Below, one piece after another: positions 20,494-27,888 of a DNA stretch of 64,000 nt (within the stretch, counting starts at the first letter, position 1; each line of letters starts with the position of its first letter). The notes under the pieces were generated by a model. That model saw only the letters and a program-made list of their open reading frames with translations. It made no database searches and was not told where the DNA came from. The DNA is from Candidatus Methanomethylophilaceae archaeon. Lineage in GTDB: Archaea; Thermoplasmatota; Thermoplasmata; Methanomassiliicoccales; Methanomethylophilaceae. Position numbers and translations under genes: made by a program. The stretch lies in NCBI GenBank assembly GCA_035271165.1, contig DATERX010000028.1, positions 1-64,000 of the forward strand. Direction: 5' to 3'.

Positions 20494-21540
20494 TCAGCAT
20501 ATCCTGGGTACAGGGTCTCCGATCGGCGGTTCCAATATCCTTTTTCCTCCGACCTCGGTCCTGAGGATAACTCTCTTTGGTCCATCGTTCGCATACCCTA
20601 TCAACGCGGCATCCTTTCCTTCCGGCGTCGATCTCAAAACCTTCAATATCTCGTCAGCCATCTCAGGGACGCATGCGATGACGCACTTACCCTCGTTACC
20701 TATACTCAAAGGATCGAGACCCAATAGATCGCAGGCGTTGACCACACCGTCCCTCAGAGGTATAGAAGCATACTCTATCTCCATGCCAACATGTGATTTC
20801 GAAGCAAGTTCGTTCAAGGTGTTGGCCAACCCTCCGCGGGTGGAGTCTTTCATCGAAGCGATACCGCCGACCTTCAATGCCTTCTCGATCATCATGTTCA
20901 GCGGAGCGACGTCACTCTGTATCTCGCTTTCAAATCCGTAACCTTCACGGAAGGACATCAGCGCTATGCCGTGATCTCCAAAGTATCCAGAGGCGATTAT
21001 CGCGTCACCAGGTGCTATGTTGGAATCCGTGCACCAGTTGTGTGTGACCTTCCTGTATTCCTTAGCCTTATCAAAATTTGAATCAAGGTATTTCGACCTG
21101 CGGCCGATGGCCGATGTAGACATGAACATCTTGTCCACCGCGCCCGCCTCGACAACTTTCGTATCGCCGGTCTCTATCGGCACACCGCATTCCTTGCTGG
21201 TCCTTCCGGCACTGGACATTATCAAGTCCACGATATCAGTATCGAGTCCCTCCTCGATTATCGCGGAACATCCCAATGCCAGGGGTTCAGCGCCCATGAC
21301 GGCGATATCGTTCACGGTACCTGCGACCGAGATCCTCCCAAGGTCTCCGCCTGGGAATATAATCGGCTTCACCGTATGTCCGTCTATAGTGAACACAATC
21401 CCGTCTACCACGGCGGAATCATCCATCGAATCCAGTGATACCTCGGATTTAGCCTTGGGGAAGTGGCACACGATGTGCTTCGACAGGAACTCCTGCATGG
21501 CCTCCCCGCCGGCCCCGTCACTCATTACGACCTTTGCCAT
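20494..21540 (-). CDS. hypE: Hydrogenase maturation protein HypE (PurM-like)
   Basis: N-terminal MSDGAGG and C-terminal PRIC motif, both HypE hallmarks. Confidence 0.85.
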   Translation of the reverse strand: MAKVVMSDGAGGEAMQEFLSKHIVCHFPKAKSEVSLDSMDDSAVVDGIVFTIDGHTVKPIIFPGGDLGRISVAGTVNDIAVMGAEPLALGCSAIIEEGLDTDIVDLIMSSAGRTSKECGVPIETGDTKVVEAGAVDKMFMSTSAIGRRSKYLDSNFDKAKEYRKVTHNWCTDSNIAPGDAIIASGYFGDHGIALMSFREGYGFESEIQSDVAPLNMMIEKALKVGGIASMKDSTRGGLANTLNELASKSHVGMEIEYASIPLRDGVVNACDLLGLDPLSIGNEGKCVIACVPEMADEILKVLRSTPEGKDAALIGYANDGPKRVILRTEVGGKRILEPPIGDPVPRIC

Positions 21541-21633
21541 TTTTGGTTGATGAGTGAACACGGATAAAGACTTGTCTTAATTTTCAAAGTCGGCAGATAT
21601 TTAAAATAAACCCTCGTGTGTAACAGCGACGTT

Positions 21634-21708
21634 GGGCCCTTGGGGTAGCGGATATCCTGTCGGCCTTCGAAGCCGAGGACTCGGGTTCGAATCCCGGAGG
21701 GCCCACCA
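21634..21708 (+). tRNA. tRNA-Arg(TCG)
   Basis: Acceptor GGGCCCT/AGGGCCC, anticodon stem TCGGC/GCCGA, loop CTTCGAA, T-arm TCGGG-TTCGAAT-CCCGG, CCA encoded. TATA-like TATTTAAAATAAA lies ~30 nt upstream. Confidence 0.8.
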
Positions 21709-21860
21709 CTTCCTTTTTCATGGAATTGAGAAAGCCTCGCCTTTTCATATCTTGCTCCAAAAGCTACCTTTGACCGTCTTCAGATATCGACTCTTGCAAA
21801 CCATCTAGCTCGTAATGTGACACAAATTCAACAAACAACCGCGTTTGTCCTCATCGATAA

Positions 21861-22354
21861 GGTTCTTGCATTCGCCAGTACAACATTTGTTACAGAACGC
21901 AAAGGAGATTACCGAACACATCATTTCCTCAATCTGATTACCAGATTGAGCTTGAATATCAAATCACCATCGATGGTCTTCTCGATCTTCGCGTATTCCG
22001 ATCTGGTCGTACTATAGGTATCCAGATAGGATCTGTTGAAGAGGTACTTCTCGAACTCGTTCCTGTTATTGAGGTGAAGGCGCCAGGGAGACCTGACATA
22101 TGCTACCCCGGGAGAGGGATAGCGACATTCGTCAATGGTTGTTTCTGGTACCGGTGCCCAAAATGTGACCTCCCATTATAAGGGTCAATATTGATTTTTG
22201 GACGGCCAAATTCCAGGGTAACGTGGAACGTGACATCAGGAACACCATGGAGCTCGAATCCTCTGGATGGGCCGTCATCACAATCTGGGAATGTGAGATA
22301 AAGGAAGATAATGATGCGGTTTTGGACAGATTACTGTCTGTCCTTGTGTTTTGA
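21861..22354 (+). pseudogene. vsr: Decayed very-short-patch-repair (Vsr) endonuclease gene: no start codon, one frameshift, catalytic His residues replaced
   Basis: Frame A to the stop at 22179: APGRPDICYPGRGIATFVNGCFWYRCPKCDLPL*. Frame B to the stop at 22354: NIDFWTAKFQGNVERDIRNTMELESSGWAVITIWECEI...; E. coli Vsr has ...FVHGCFWHGHHC...EFWLEKIGKNVERD...GWRVLIVWECAL. Confidence 0.7.
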
Positions 22355-22362
22355 CTCCTTGT

Positions 22363-22932
22363 TCAGTTCCCAGGATAGGTCACCAGGGATTCCACGTCAT
22401 ATCCCTTCAATTTGTCGCGCCCATTCAGCCCGGCGAGCTCTATGACGAAGCATATCTTCACAATCTTTCCGCCGAGCCTCTCGATCATCTTGATCATGGC
22501 TTCAGTCGTACCGCCGGTGGCGATGAGATCGTCAACGATCACCACCCTCTGTCCGGGTTTGATACAATCTACATGAAGTTCCAATTCCGCTGTGCCGTAT
22601 TCCAGGTCGTACTCCTGGGAGATGGTCTCACGCGGAAGCTTTCCCTTCTTCCTTACGATGATGAAACCCTTGTTCATGGCGTATGCAACGGGAGCTCCGA
22701 AGATGAATCCCCTGGATTCGGATCCGGCCACAAGGTCGTAATCTATCCCGTCGAGCATCTCTACTATGCCGTCTATGGATTTTGCAAAACCATCCTTATC
22801 CTGTAAAACGGTTGTAATGTCTCTGAACATTATCCCTTTGGAAGGGAAATCCGGTATGGTCTCGATATAGTCTTCAACGGTCTTCATGTGGTAACCATCA
22901 CACAGGACTACCTGAACAGTATAAAAAGACAA
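22363..22932 (-). CDS. Purine phosphoribosyltransferase (adenine PRTase-like)
   Basis: PRPP-binding motif VVIVDDLIATGGT; 189 aa. Confidence 0.7.
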   Translation of the reverse strand: MSFYTVQVVLCDGYHMKTVEDYIETIPDFPSKGIMFRDITTVLQDKDGFAKSIDGIVEMLDGIDYDLVAGSESRGFIFGAPVAYAMNKGFIIVRKKGKLPRETISQEYDLEYGTAELELHVDCIKPGQRVVIVDDLIATGGTTEAMIKMIERLGGKIVKICFVIELAGLNGRDKLKGYDVESLVTYPGN

Positions 22933-23355: not shown

Positions 23356-24459
23356 TCAGCCCAACTGTTCGGAGCAGTACGGACAGAACTTTGGCGTCTT
23401 CTTCAGACCCTTTAAGCTCTCCCCGCAGTAAGGGCACACGTTGAACACCTTGATGTCACCGGATCCCGAGGCCCCCTTCTGCATCGCAGGCGGCGGTAGC
23501 GGGTCTCTAAACTCCTCGAGCGCCTGTTGCTGAGGTGAGGGTTTTCCGCAGTCGTTGCAGTATTTGTACGGATAATCGTTAGGTGATCCGCAGTACGGAC
23601 ACAGGACCTTGGGAGCCTGCCCTTTATGACTCTGTTCCGTGGCCTGCTGCTGTTGCAGCTGTTGATACATCTGCGGGAAAAGCAACATACCGGTACCGAT
23701 CGCGGCACCTCCCTCGGAGTTACCTATCGCATCTGCCATGCGGTCCATGACTGAGTATCTCTTGAACGCCTCTCCCCTCTGGGAGCTGAACTGAAGATAT
23801 TCGAAGATCTTCTCCTGGTCCTCGTCGGTGGTCCTGAGCTCTGAAATCTTGAATGCCAATAGCTCGATACCCCTCTGGCGGAAGTACGGGTCGATCAACG
23901 CCCTCGTCGCGGACGATGCAAGCTCAAGACTCGAATAGACCTCCATGAAGTACTGTTTCGTGAGCTGCTGGGTGATCTGTTCGTTTATGAAGCTCTTCAT
24001 GAAGGCATTGACGTCACCGGTGCTGTAGGCGCTCATACCCCCAAGTATCTGAGTGTAGAATATCGCCACGTCGTTGATGCGGAACTGATAATCGCCGTTC
24101 GCCATCAAAGTGATCGGAACATCGTAATCGGGTGCGGCCTTGATCATACCCCTTATGCCCCACTTCCCGTTGAACATCTTAAGCGAGACGAATATGACCT
24201 GGACCTTGAACGGGGTCTCCTTATATCCCAGGGCAAGGTTGTAGAGTCTTGTCAGCCAGGGTATGTTGGACGTCGTCAACGTATGCCTTCCAGGCTCCAA
24301 AACACCGGTCAGCTGACCATCCCTCACGAACAACGCCACCGCATGTTCAGGTACTGTAACAGAGGTGACGGTCCTGAGGTCGTCCCTCTCGTACACATAA
24401 ACCATGTCGTCCTGGCCTTGGTTCTTCCATGATATGACATTGGTCTTTTCAACGACCAT
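23356..24459 (-). CDS. YdjI-type SPFH/Band-7-like protein with Q-rich linker and two C-terminal zinc ribbons
   Basis: N-terminal domain resembles B. subtilis YdjI (VISWKNQGQDDMVYVY...FVSLKMFNGKWGIRG). Q-rich linker QMYQQLQQQQ; Cx2C-x9-Cx2C and Cx2C-x12-Cx2C at the C-terminus. Confidence 0.6.
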   Translation of the reverse strand: MVVEKTNVISWKNQGQDDMVYVYERDDLRTVTSVTVPEHAVALFVRDGQLTGVLEPGRHTLTTSNIPWLTRLYNLALGYKETPFKVQVIFVSLKMFNGKWGIRGMIKAAPDYDVPITLMANGDYQFRINDVAIFYTQILGGMSAYSTGDVNAFMKSFINEQITQQLTKQYFMEVYSSLELASSATRALIDPYFRQRGIELLAFKISELRTTDEDQEKIFEYLQFSSQRGEAFKRYSVMDRMADAIGNSEGGAAIGTGMLLFPQMYQQLQQQQATEQSHKGQAPKVLCPYCGSPNDYPYKYCNDCGKPSPQQQALEEFRDPLPPPAMQKGASGSGDIKVFNVCPYCGESLKGLKKTPKFCPYCSEQLG

Positions 24460-24464
24460 TCAAA

Positions 24465-25007
24465 TCACTCCTTCGCCAGGAATCCCTTCATGACGGTTTC
24501 CCTTTCGTTATAGTCCTCGATCAATCTGTCGATGGTCCTCTCGACATCTCTGAGAGGAGTCTTGATGGCGTATTCACCCTGGTCAATCTTCTGTATCAGG
24601 TTGCCGATCTCCTTCCTCAGTAGGACGGTGCCGCCTATCAACTTGGCATCCCATGATATCAGGTCGTCCAGCTCCTCTTCCAGTATCTTGACCGAGGCAT
24701 GCCATCCGCTATAACCGTTCACGGCCTTCTTCACAGATATGTAATACTTGTCCACCTTCGAGGCTATCCTCTCGACATCCCTCATGAGGTCCAGGTTCTC
24801 TATGGCGACCCTGTGTACGGTTGCGAGATCGTTCTTTGCCCCCTCAAGGGTACGGGCGACCTCCTGTCTTATGGCACGGTCCTCGTCCCTACGGAGGTTT
24901 TTCTCTTTGTATCCCCTGTAGATGGGGATGTAAAGACCTACGCGTTCGATGAGTGACGTTGTGCCCTCCATCTTTTCGCTAACTGTCTCTTCCAACGGCA
25001 TTTTCAA
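24465..25007 (-). CDS. Soluble helical/coiled-coil protein of unknown family (operon member)
   Basis: 180 aa, no TM helix, charged heptad-like stretches; 4-nt overlap with the upstream 4-TM gene. Confidence 0.4.
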   Translation of the reverse strand: MKMPLEETVSEKMEGTTSLIERVGLYIPIYRGYKEKNLRRDEDRAIRQEVARTLEGAKNDLATVHRVAIENLDLMRDVERIASKVDKYYISVKKAVNGYSGWHASVKILEEELDDLISWDAKLIGGTVLLRKEIGNLIQKIDQGEYAIKTPLRDVERTIDRLIEDYNERETVMKGFLAKE

Positions 25008-25387
25008 TCACTCCTTATATCACGATTTTTAACAGCCAATACTATCACGAGTATGGCGATGATCAGGACTATCATTGCCACGGGGGCAATCCAGTCAAGG
25101 TCGGTGAACATGTACATGTAACCGGCCAGTCCGATAACCAGCATAAGCACGCCCATCACAAGGCTGTAGTCCGCCTCACTAGGTCCGAAGTTTGTACTCC
25201 GCCCCTTCTGCAACGGTGCCAACACTGCTACGGTCACCCCCATCATAATTAGTATCACCCAGAGGATGATGCTAGCTCCCATATCGGTTGCGTAGTATAA
25301 CACCAGGCCCACCACCAGCGATATAAGGAACATCGCCCCCGATATGGCTGAAAGGGTCCTGTTAGCCCTTCTGTCTCTGCTTTTCAT
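25004..25387 (-). CDS. Small integral membrane protein (4 TM)
   Basis: 127 aa, four hydrophobic helices, basic N-terminus MKSRDRRANR. Confidence 0.5.
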   Translation of the reverse strand: MKSRDRRANRTLSAISGAMFLISLVVGLVLYYATDMGASIILWVILIMMGVTVAVLAPLQKGRSTNFGPSEADYSLVMGVLMLVIGLAGYMYMFTDLDWIAPVAMIVLIIAILVIVLAVKNRDIRSD

Positions 25388-25406
25388 CTTTTCGCCTCCC
25401 TATATA

Positions 25407-26945
25407 TCATATCATTATGAGTTGATCCGTGTTTACTCTTTTCATCCTCTCGGGCAAGAGCTTGCCGAAGCCGTCGATCACTACCATACCGTTCGAGATC
25501 CTGCAAGGAATATAGAGCAGGCCTTTGACATAAGGCTTGCTAAGTTTCAACTTGTTATCGTTCTTAGTGCTTTGCACGAGATAGTTATTGGTAAGGTGTT
25601 CGGCCTCCTTCTTTGTGCTCAGGGGAATCATTATCCTGCGTGCACCGGGACTGCCCGGTCTCGCCGCCTCTGAAATCATCCCTATACCCTCTCCGCCACT
25701 GATGCTCTTTTCCATTCCGCGCAGTCCTGCGAGGATGCTCTTCGGCGGTGAGAGGGAGAATATGTCTGTAAGTCCCGATGAAGGGTTGGTGAGACATCCA
25801 CGGTCTATGGTGAAGTCTGCAGGTATCAGCAGATCCTCAAGTACCTCAACGCTCTTCTTAGACCACAAGGCACCGGTGACGAAGCTGTATCTCAGATTCA
25901 CATACCAGAAGGGGAACAGATGGTCCCCACCTCCAGGTGCGATCATTATCGTATCGTTACCGCTCCTGGAGCTGAGCGCGGCGGAGAGATGGTCGAAGAG
26001 TTCCTTGTTACGGTCCTTGTTCCTTAGGATCCCCCAACCGCTCACGTTGGGATACTGTATCGAATATATTCTGGATAAAGTGGAAAGTGTCTTCACGGCA
26101 TCCCCGCCTGTGGATGCGGCGTTCTTCACAGTCTCGGTGAGCACGGTTATCTTAGAAAGCTCCCTACCCACTCCCTGATACATGACCGCTAGGGAGGGGA
26201 TCGCCAACAATTCGTTTCTAGCCTCCTCTAGCCCGGCAACGCTCTTCTCAAGATAGGATATGCTTCCCAAGGTGTCCCCGTTCAGCATCTTCTCGCATCC
26301 CTCGCACGCCTTTGCGAGGGAATCGAAGCGTTTTGCAACAGGGGCATAGTTAGCCGTACCCCTCAACAGCTCCGCGGCCTGGGAGAAGTTGTTTCCCATA
26401 AGGACGTACCTTCCAGGTTTGTCCTCCTGCAGGAGTTTAACATTGTTAAGCATAAGTGCGTAGGAGTTCACGATCCCCTCTGCATCGGAAAGCTCCTTTT
26501 TATCATCAATGTCCACCGCCAGGGACGATAGGCTTTTTATCTTGGCGTCGAACTCGAAAGCGGATGCCGGCGAATGTACAGGTCTCACGGTAACGTCGAA
26601 GGAGAAGGGCATTACGAAGAGCGAGTTGGTCATAAGGGTGTTCGCCGCGAACCTGTATTCCGTTATCTCGGCGTTCATCCTCGGTTTGACGTTGGTGACG
26701 TAGATGTTGTGCCTCGCCACCGAGTCTACATTCTCCGCCTGTGACATGGAGAACCCTCTGGGCATCGCGTTGCTGACCCATGATCGGACCTGACCCATCA
26801 ATTGGTCGAGGTATGCCTTGGCATCCATCCGCTGCTGTGTGGTACCGCAGCTCTTGCATGAGATGTACGGAGTATCCGCCTCCACGTCCTTCGCGTCGAA
26901 CGGCGCTCCGCAATATTTACATCGTAAAAGCACAAGGTCGTCCAT
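25407..26945 (-). CDS. 512-aa uncharacterised protein with N-terminal zinc ribbon
   Basis: LRCKYCGAPF-x17-CKSCGT at the N-terminus; the rest is soluble alpha/beta with no motif I recognise. Confidence 0.4.
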   Translation of the reverse strand: MDDLVLLRCKYCGAPFDAKDVEADTPYISCKSCGTTQQRMDAKAYLDQLMGQVRSWVSNAMPRGFSMSQAENVDSVARHNIYVTNVKPRMNAEITEYRFAANTLMTNSLFVMPFSFDVTVRPVHSPASAFEFDAKIKSLSSLAVDIDDKKELSDAEGIVNSYALMLNNVKLLQEDKPGRYVLMGNNFSQAAELLRGTANYAPVAKRFDSLAKACEGCEKMLNGDTLGSISYLEKSVAGLEEARNELLAIPSLAVMYQGVGRELSKITVLTETVKNAASTGGDAVKTLSTLSRIYSIQYPNVSGWGILRNKDRNKELFDHLSAALSSRSGNDTIMIAPGGGDHLFPFWYVNLRYSFVTGALWSKKSVEVLEDLLIPADFTIDRGCLTNPSSGLTDIFSLSPPKSILAGLRGMEKSISGGEGIGMISEAARPGSPGARRIMIPLSTKKEAEHLTNNYLVQSTKNDNKLKLSKPYVKGLLYIPCRISNGMVVIDGFGKLLPERMKRVNTDQLIMI

Positions 26946-26949
26946 GGGG

Positions 26950-27888
26950 TCACCTCCTGAGATAGCTCAGCTGTGAATGTATAGCATACAGTTCCGCCTG
27001 CATCCTGGCCTCGGTCGCCCTTATCTCAGACATGGCGTTCTCGTGATAGCGTTGTGCTATCTCGTCCGCCTTCTTGGTGATGCTGGAATGACACGCCCTG
27101 CAGGCATAGATTGCCTCGTGGTCCTCCGTCTCGGAGGTAAGGGGCTCCCTGCCCGGCGGCGTACGGAGCGCTGGCGATATGTCGCTGGGGAGTGCGAAGA
27201 AATGTATACCAAGGCCGGAGACGACCCTGCCGCAATACCAGCATTTGCATGTCTTCGCATAATCGTTGATCAACCGGAGGTTCTCCTCCCCGGTATCGCC
27301 CATCTGTTTCCGGTATCCGTAAGCTATCTGTTGGTACTCGGCGGCCTTTCGCGGATCTTCCCAGACGGTACCAGTGGCATAGGCCTCATATCCCATGGCC
27401 ATAAGCATGGCACCTTCCTTCATACCGGTCCTTGTCGTATCGTTGTTGTAAATCTCGCTTAATTTCAAAGTCTCTTCGCCGACCTCGGTCTGATACCTCT
27501 GCGCTAATTCGACGAGCTTCTGGCCCTTGTCGACGAGATCCCTTCCGGAGCCGCGCATATTGGTGATTCTTATCTCCTCGATGGCAAGCTCCGATTGTTT
27601 GATCATGGTCTCGGTATTCACCATCGTCAGGCCGAACTCGAACTCCTTGGCATCGGTATTCTTAAGCGATGTGATGAGATTCCTATATGCTCCGACGTCC
27701 CCCATGTTGCCACGTAGATCAATCATGCCGACCACGACGGCCGAAAGGTCGTCTGGACCGCCATCCTTCCTTATCGATAGGAGGAGCCTTTCCCGTGCCT
27801 TGGCGAATTCCCCCTGCCGTATCAGGTCCATTCCCTGAATGTGCAGGTCATCTGCTTTCTTGAATCTGGAGAAAACCATCTGCTTCAT
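26950..27888 (-). CDS. 312-aa helical (TPR-like N-terminus) protein with C-terminal Cys-rich zinc-ribbon-like region; first gene of operon
   Basis: DLIRQGEFAKARERLLLSI helical-repeat-like N-terminus; CKCWYCG...CRACH cysteine cluster; C-terminal coiled coil. Confidence 0.4.
   Translation of the reverse strand: MKQMVFSRFKKADDLHIQGMDLIRQGEFAKARERLLLSIRKDGGPDDLSAVVVGMIDLRGNMGDVGAYRNLITSLKNTDAKEFEFGLTMVNTETMIKQSELAIEEIRITNMRGSGRDLVDKGQKLVELAQRYQTEVGEETLKLSEIYNNDTTRTGMKEGAMLMAMGYEAYATGTVWEDPRKAAEYQQIAYGYRKQMGDTGEENLRLINDYAKTCKCWYCGRVVSGLGIHFFALPSDISPALRTPPGREPLTSETEDHEAIYACRACHSSITKKADEIAQRYHENAMSEIRATEARMQAELYAIHSQLSYLRR

Follow-up and report, generated by a model that had tools for sequence, protein, structure and literature searches.

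A truncated and frameshifted vsr remnant, probably of horizontal origin, between tRNA-Arg(TCG) and apt in a Methanomethylophilaceae archaeon

The interval 21709-22362 of the window (the whole 64-kb stretch of DNA that was analysed) very probably holds an ordinary pseudogene, namely the remnant of a horizontally transferred vsr gene that is truncated at its 5' end, frameshifted, and mutated in its active site. The fragment is predicted to be without repair function. We propose that a vsr gene would have been acquired horizontally by a Methanomethylophilaceae lineage and would have landed between tRNA-Arg(TCG) and apt, in a spacer that varies naturally. Most likely it arrived together with a C5 DNA methyltransferase or in a restriction-modification cassette, as its intact relatives are found. 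Subsequently, loss of the DNA before vsr codon ~50 would have removed the start codon and the N-terminal third and, presumably, the partner genes as well, if these lay upstream as in E. coli dcm-vsr. The surviving 278 nt would then have lost a single base, and the codon of the essential histidine would have changed from CAC to TAC. We infer the former presence of a partner, the order of these events, and the means of arrival from the comparisons given below. No new mechanism or family is involved; the remnant would be a minor trace of an earlier horizontal transfer to a host-associated (gut) methanogen, and the incoming DNA was probably bacterial and associated with cytosine methylation. Features of the locus are listed in Table 1.

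Table 1. Position, strand, and basis of assignment of the features at the locus (coordinates of the window)
Feature	Position	Strand	Basis
HypE/AIR-synthase-related gene, conserved left flank	20494-21561	-	Pfam AIRS and AIRS_C
tRNA-Arg, anticodon TCG, intact	21634-21708	+	ARAGORN; Rfam RF00005, 60.6 bits
Orphan non-coding spacer, 368 nt, from tRNA to first Vsr-homologous codon	21709-22076		No profile or similarity match
vsr remnant, segment A, frame 3, KAPGRPDICYPGRGIATFVNGCFWYRCPKCDLPL	22077-22178	+	Profile positions 52-85 of 145, E 1.2e-19
TAC (Tyr) codon aligned with His69 of E. coli Vsr	22149-22151	+	Alignment to 1CW0 and 1VSR
Frameshift patch, 8 nt, TAAGGGTC	22179-22186	+	9 nt in relatives, Pro-Lys-Ser
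vsr remnant, segment B, frame 2, NIDFWTAKFQGNVERDIRNTMELESSGWAVITIWECEIKEDNDAVLDRLLSVLVF	22187-22354	+	Profile positions 85-140, E 7.6e-22
apt-like phosphoribosyltransferase gene, conserved right flank	22363-22932	-	Pfam Pribosyltran

Homology to Vsr and the lesions of the remnant

Two reading frames, 22077-22178 and 22175-22354, jointly match Vsr. On a subfamily profile of 145 positions, built from 42 full-length relatives, the two segments abut exactly at position 85 while the frame passes from 3 to 2, which is the pattern of a frameshifted gene. Segment A is 85% identical to protein P0001 over 34 aa and runs into a TAA stop (22179-22181), and segment B closes with a TGA stop (22352-22354). 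When joined, their translation matched the vsr model TIGR00632 with an E value of 2.8e-19 and 69.6 bits; since only positions 46-119 of 119 match, this score lies below the full-length cutoff of 97.85. Pfam Vsr was matched at 26-27 bits, along with DUF559, and the E. coli Vsr structures 1VSR, 1CW0, and 1ODG were matched at E ~3e-13. A database search returned 49 Vsr proteins (E 5e-36 to 1e-19, identity up to 70%) and one 54-aa protein that is the C-terminal fragment itself, differing only at its annotated start; the named relatives of the remnant protein are bacterial. Judged from these alignments, the homology to Vsr is far beyond chance. The original prediction, that two frames here together spell a Vsr endonuclease, is thus borne out by profile matches over both of them. 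It had placed the gene about 150 nt past the tRNA; a stop-free frame does run from 21861, but the homology begins at 22068-22077, ~360 nt after the tRNA.

The first lesion is at the 5' end. Nothing in the six frames of 21709-22076 corresponds to profile positions 1-51 of 145, and the N-terminal third of vsr was not recovered on either strand by tblastn with eight relatives (E up to 50) or by a profile search with all filters off (E up to 100). Since the surviving part is 57-85% identical to its relatives, an N-terminus that had merely decayed would have shown in these searches, and we conclude that it is absent. The earlier picture of a decayed vsr gene therefore holds as regards loss of function and fails as regards the kind of damage, which is a 5' truncation and not the decay of a full-length gene. 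Similarly, the N-terminal half had been described as having no ATG or GTG start. It is correct that there is no start upstream; the sole in-frame start is a GTG at 22074, right at the edge of the homology. The missing N-terminal ~50 residues would have included the helix and strand that bear the equivalents of Glu25 and Gln42 of E. coli Vsr (PMC4081097, PMC2677866).

Where the two segments meet, a DNA alignment with three intact genes gave a single-base gap and several substitutions, among them the loss of a Pro that is kept in 41 of 42 relatives. The alignment gap and the switch of frame on the profile both fall within 22179-22186, in good agreement with the 1-nt frameshift predicted near 22170-22180, and the patch contains no homopolymer run. 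The 1-nt deletion thus appears to be real in the assembled sequence. Together with the TAA at 22179-22181, it leaves no single uninterrupted ORF with a start codon.

The third lesion lies in the active site. His69 of E. coli Vsr is reported to be essential and to contact the cleaved phosphate (PMC4081097); its equivalent is Tyr in the remnant versus His in all 42 relatives. The equivalents of Asp51 (in PGRPD) and Asp97 (in NVERD), also invariant among the 42, are present. Replacement of the catalytic and structural histidines had been noted earlier, and for the His69 equivalent this is right. The Asn of FVNG and the Arg-Cys of WHRC, however, are normal for this type of protein (FVNGCFW..RCPKC), as the intact relatives all read FVNGCFWHRCPKC. 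Among the strongly conserved positions (≥85%) in the surviving part, 33 of 36 are kept, so the fragment is not heavily eroded, and its inactivation is either recent or undatable. From the three lesions, we predict that nicking at T:G mismatches is absent.

Compared with E. coli Vsr, the remnant retains the stretch from PGRPD (Asp51) through FxxGCFW, NVERD (Asp97), and WEC (Cys117), including the equivalents of the intercalating Phe67 and Trp68 and four Cys placed to bind zinc. It differs in having nothing that precedes E. coli residue ~46, in the change of His69 to Tyr, in its broken frame and lack of a start for a full-length protein, and in having no dcm partner in the window. These features indicate that the remnant derives from a vsr gene and is not a working Vsr.

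Two readings would make the locus, or part of it, a functional gene. If one base is added in 22179-22186, a frame of 93 codons results, from GTG 22074 to 22354, and the frameshift might then be a sequencing or assembly error in an intact gene. We consider this very improbable, since the repaired frame would still be without profile positions 1-51 and an upstream start, and would still encode Tyr at the invariant catalytic His. An error is further at odds with the several substitutions in the patch, including the conserved Pro, with its not being a homopolymer run, and with the GenBank annotation of the same sequence, which gives only a 54-aa C-terminal piece; with the N-terminus missing, an intact gene is ruled out. 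That annotation (HKM09660.1, corresponding to our P0033) covers 22190-22354 from an ATT and is named 'DUF559 domain-containing protein', in line with a match of Pfam DUF559 (PF04480) to segment B at 25.4 bits (cutoff 20.6); MTES_1575 is matched as well. On these grounds, the C-terminal fragment might be a genuine small gene (43-54 aa) that has its own function, and a TATA-like TTATAA (22176-22181) lies upstream of GTG 22223. However, the match covers only positions 61-108 of 109 of the DUF559 model, the end of the nuclease fold, which contains neither Asp51 nor His69, the annotated ATT start is non-canonical, and no homologous stand-alone mini-protein occurs among the 50 matches; a genuine small gene is therefore highly improbable. 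Since Vsr is by far the better match for the remnant as a whole (the TIGR00632 score given above), the DUF559 label appears to be a by-product of annotating a fragment. The public annotation can accordingly be corrected, HKM09660.1 being the tail of a vsr pseudogene. Its protein cluster has a single member, an exact-sequence look-up of HKM09660.1 led to no contig, and in a metagenome scan for another assembly with this pseudogene no match exceeded 65% identity.

The TTATAA was created by the frameshift patch, ~45 nt upstream of GTG 22223, and might allow spurious transcription of the C-terminal fragment. That it drives transcription of the C-terminal piece (22190 or 22223 to 22354), and that this piece has been kept as a 43-54-aa protein or as an RNA with a new role, is a speculation to which we attach hardly any probability. 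If true, it might, for example, bind DNA or a partner without cutting, or affect 3'-end formation in the convergent transcripts of apt and the tRNA, and the retention of 33 of 36 conserved positions could reflect selection and not youth.

Intact relatives and the methyltransferase partner

Members of the Vsr subfamily with FVNGCFWHRCPKC (P0001-P0050) are 57-70% identical to the remnant over its surviving 91 residues, and share with it the RCPKC motif and, where E. coli has His64, a subfamily-specific Asn. They come mostly from bacterial contigs and from contigs of gut or rumen metagenomes. Unlike the remnant, intact members are 138-157 aa long, and a C5-methyltransferase lies no more than 3 kb away in ~90% of informative cases, often together with an integrase or a restriction enzyme of the NgoFVII-like or MutH/Sau3AI-like kind. 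These frequencies were obtained by grouping the subfamily loci into 57 clusters at 90% identity, of which 18 have contigs too short to tell. A C5-methyltransferase lay within 3 kb in 35 of 39 informative clusters, which supports the earlier statement that Vsr usually travels with a Dcm-type methyltransferase. The other four clusters indicate that solitary vsr genes exist; in three of them, including the groups of locus L097 (65% identity) and L107 (55%), there was none within 10 kb either.

No such partner accompanies the remnant in the window, as had been predicted. With an HMM built from 46 vsr-linked C5-methyltransferases, a six-frame search of the 64-kb window for intact or fragmentary enzymes (fragments ≥25 aa) gave a best E value of 2.2, and the PCQ motif does not occur in the six-frame translation of the window. 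In E. coli, dcm lies upstream of vsr. The same arrangement, with the methyltransferase upstream on the same strand, is found in 9 of the 35 linked clusters. At the present locus, the apt-like gene is convergent with the remnant, its C-terminus is intact, and the two stop codons are 8 nt apart; an upstream, same-strand methyltransferase is the arrangement that is easiest to reconcile with the locus. We regard it as fairly probable that the remnant was once accompanied by a C5-methyltransferase or a restriction-modification cassette.

Several related loci have a mobile or defence setting. In L002, the order is tRNA-Lys, integrase, small ORF, ORF of unknown function, vsr, NgoFVII-like restriction enzyme, and C5-methyltransferase, and in L165 it is integrase, small ORF, 181-aa ORF, and vsr; the two integrases are homologous (E 2e-12). 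L168 has vsr between genes for an NgoFVII-like enzyme and AIPR abortive-infection genes. In L003, the closest relative (70% identity), the 181-aa ORF has a homologue, which is followed by a predicted tRNA-Ala, vsr, and a convergent MutH/Sau3AI-like nuclease. It was considered as an orthologous locus and rejected, as the convergent 188-aa gene downstream is this nuclease and not apt, and its tRNA, which is tRNA-Ala, is situated inside the module between the ORF of unknown function and vsr. The ORFs of ~181 aa directly upstream of vsr in L165 (1333-1878) and L003 (218-772) are 29% identical (E 9e-20), and the L003 copy has no Pfam match; in L002, an ORF of 119 aa (1365-1724) has a similar place in the gene order to that in L165. 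Further relatives of vsr, found on plasmids (195) and phages (31), have less than 60% identity throughout and are uninformative as to the donor.

The tRNA-Arg to apt spacer and the arrival of vsr

The remnant lies in a conserved gene order. A hypE-like gene adjoins tRNA-Arg in at least 30 Methanomassiliicoccales loci; the HypE-related protein is 83-90% identical across twelve Methanomethylophilaceae/Methanomassiliicoccales loci (L004-L015), and the apt-like gene occurs in the same position, with 80-87% identity, in L004-L007, L010, L012, and L013. These seven relatives keep the order hypE, tRNA-Arg, apt. Their tRNA-Arg to apt spacers measure 42 bp (L006), 135 bp (L005), 193 bp (L004), 195 bp (L010), 1527 bp (L007), 2329 bp (L012), and 7523 bp (L013); in the window, the distance from tRNA-Arg to the apt stop codon is 654 nt, and there is no long ORF in it. 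No vsr was found by blastn or tblastn in the spacer of any of the seven, so the orthologous tRNA-Arg locus offers no intact vsr-dcm pair, and the fragment appears to be a lineage-specific insertion remnant, i.e., foreign DNA at this site.

The content of this spacer is shown to vary among Methanomethylophilaceae. L012 (6560-8888) has only MarR and PEBP genes, and L013 (2329-9851) has genes for MarR, PEBP, MttB, MtbB (Dimeth_Pyl), and two B12-binding corrinoid proteins. The spacer is thus naturally variable, but the large inserts in relatives are methylamine-methyltransferase genes and not mobile elements, and it would seem not to be simply a landing pad for the latter. L012 and L013 are UBA Methanomassiliicoccaceae MAGs, and the MttB and MtbB ORFs of L013 break at ~322 and ~356 aa, as would be expected for in-frame amber (pyrrolysine) codons. 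The 1.5-kb insert of L007 (8326-9852) encodes a weakly DUF3800-like protein (E 0.0016), apparently split into overlapping ORFs of 190 and 72 aa, and this may be another decaying accessory gene.

The 368 nt between the tRNA and the remnant matched nothing in the comparisons. Searches with tblastn and blastn against 163 related loci and the rest of the window gave a best E value of 0.05, Pfam gave no match, and an Rfam scan of the locus found the tRNA alone and nothing in this spacer. Its folding z-scores were -0.70 and -0.68 for the two strands. At 21928-21950, it contains a perfect 9-bp hairpin, CTCAATCTG-ATTAC-CAGATTGAG; by a rough estimate, fewer than 0.01 such stems would be expected by chance in 368 nt. 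The hairpin might be what is left of a regulatory or recombination site that belonged to the lost element.

In the window, the tRNA-Arg has an encoded CCA (21706-21708) preceded by the discriminator A73, and a run of five T (21714-21718) follows; six relatives have G73 and CCA. In L007, the genome whose tRNA is most similar to that of the window, the discriminator is G73 and CCA is lacking; the two tRNAs are 100% identical over 71 nt aligned (blastn), the identity stopping exactly where the acceptor stem ends.

How vsr reached the spacer bears on a narrower form of the preferred explanation, in which a tRNA-targeted integrative element with vsr and restriction-modification genes was inserted by a tyrosine integrase into the 3' end of tRNA-Arg and nearly all of it was then deleted. 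The element L002, which unites tRNA-Lys, integrase, vsr, restriction enzyme, and methyltransferase, is a model for this, as is the same order of integrase and vsr in L165 with its homologous integrase (E 2e-12), and the A73 of the window versus G73 in relatives, together with the end of the L007 tRNA identity at that point, is consistent with an event at the tRNA 3' end. However, the final 32 nt of the tRNA are not repeated elsewhere in the window (≤3 mismatches), and direct repeats in 21560-22420 are at chance level only, so the att-like repeats of the tRNA 3' end that such an insertion might leave were not found. A tblastn search of the window for an integrase remnant, with the L002 integrase as single query, gave a best E value of 1.0, away from the locus. 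Moreover, the fragment does not adjoin the tRNA, with 368 nt of unrelated DNA in between, and a tRNA lies within 1 kb of vsr at only 1 of 83 loci, namely L003, where it sits inside the module and not at its end. We therefore regard the element as a tentative reading. Integrase-mediated integration at the tRNA is plausible, if rather doubtful; with neither an att repeat nor an integrase remnant, it is something that we infer. The earlier description of the locus as the fossil of an integrated module at a tRNA gene is thus upheld in that a foreign vsr remnant is present, and goes further than the data in that no att site, integrase, or methyltransferase remnant was detected.

Alternatively, illegitimate recombination would have brought in a vsr gene on its own, or only part of one, which was never accompanied by a methyltransferase at this site. 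Solitary genes are known from the four informative clusters without a C5-methyltransferase within 3 kb, three of which also have none within 10 kb, and the window holds no remnant of a partner gene. Since no piece of a cassette besides vsr (methyltransferase, restriction enzyme, integrase, or att site) was recovered, the gene may indeed have come alone or as a fragment. Against this, ~90% of informative clusters are methyltransferase-linked, and at least one deletion on the upstream side is evident from the 5' truncation. A solitary origin is accordingly judged unlikely.

Neighbouring genes and other observations

Beyond apt, a cluster of five genes on the minus strand (23356-27888) encodes an SPFH/Band-7 protein with C-terminal zinc ribbons, a weakly DUF3784-like protein, and three proteins (180, 512, and 312 aa) without a Pfam match. 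It had been taken for an accessory operon lying immediately downstream of the vsr remnant and marking the region as an insertion hot spot. This was not sustained, as apt lies between the remnant and the cluster, and the gene order is kept in L006, L010, L012, and partly L013, with 60-80% identity, like the housekeeping neighbours, and also in the more distant L027, with 38-51% identity. An accessory island was rejected on this ground; since relatives have the same gene order, the cluster appears not to be accessory and would not mark a hot spot, and the spacer inserts of relatives are not mobile elements either.

An archaeal pair of hypE and DUF1015 genes was also encountered on two contigs with bacterial titles, L016 (CAVFUJ010000058.1, titled Anaerovoracaceae bacterium) with 73-74% identity to the window and L020 (CAVGUW010000008.1, titled Bacteroides salyersiae) with 61-63%. 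Both contigs are probably mis-binned Methanomethylophilaceae.
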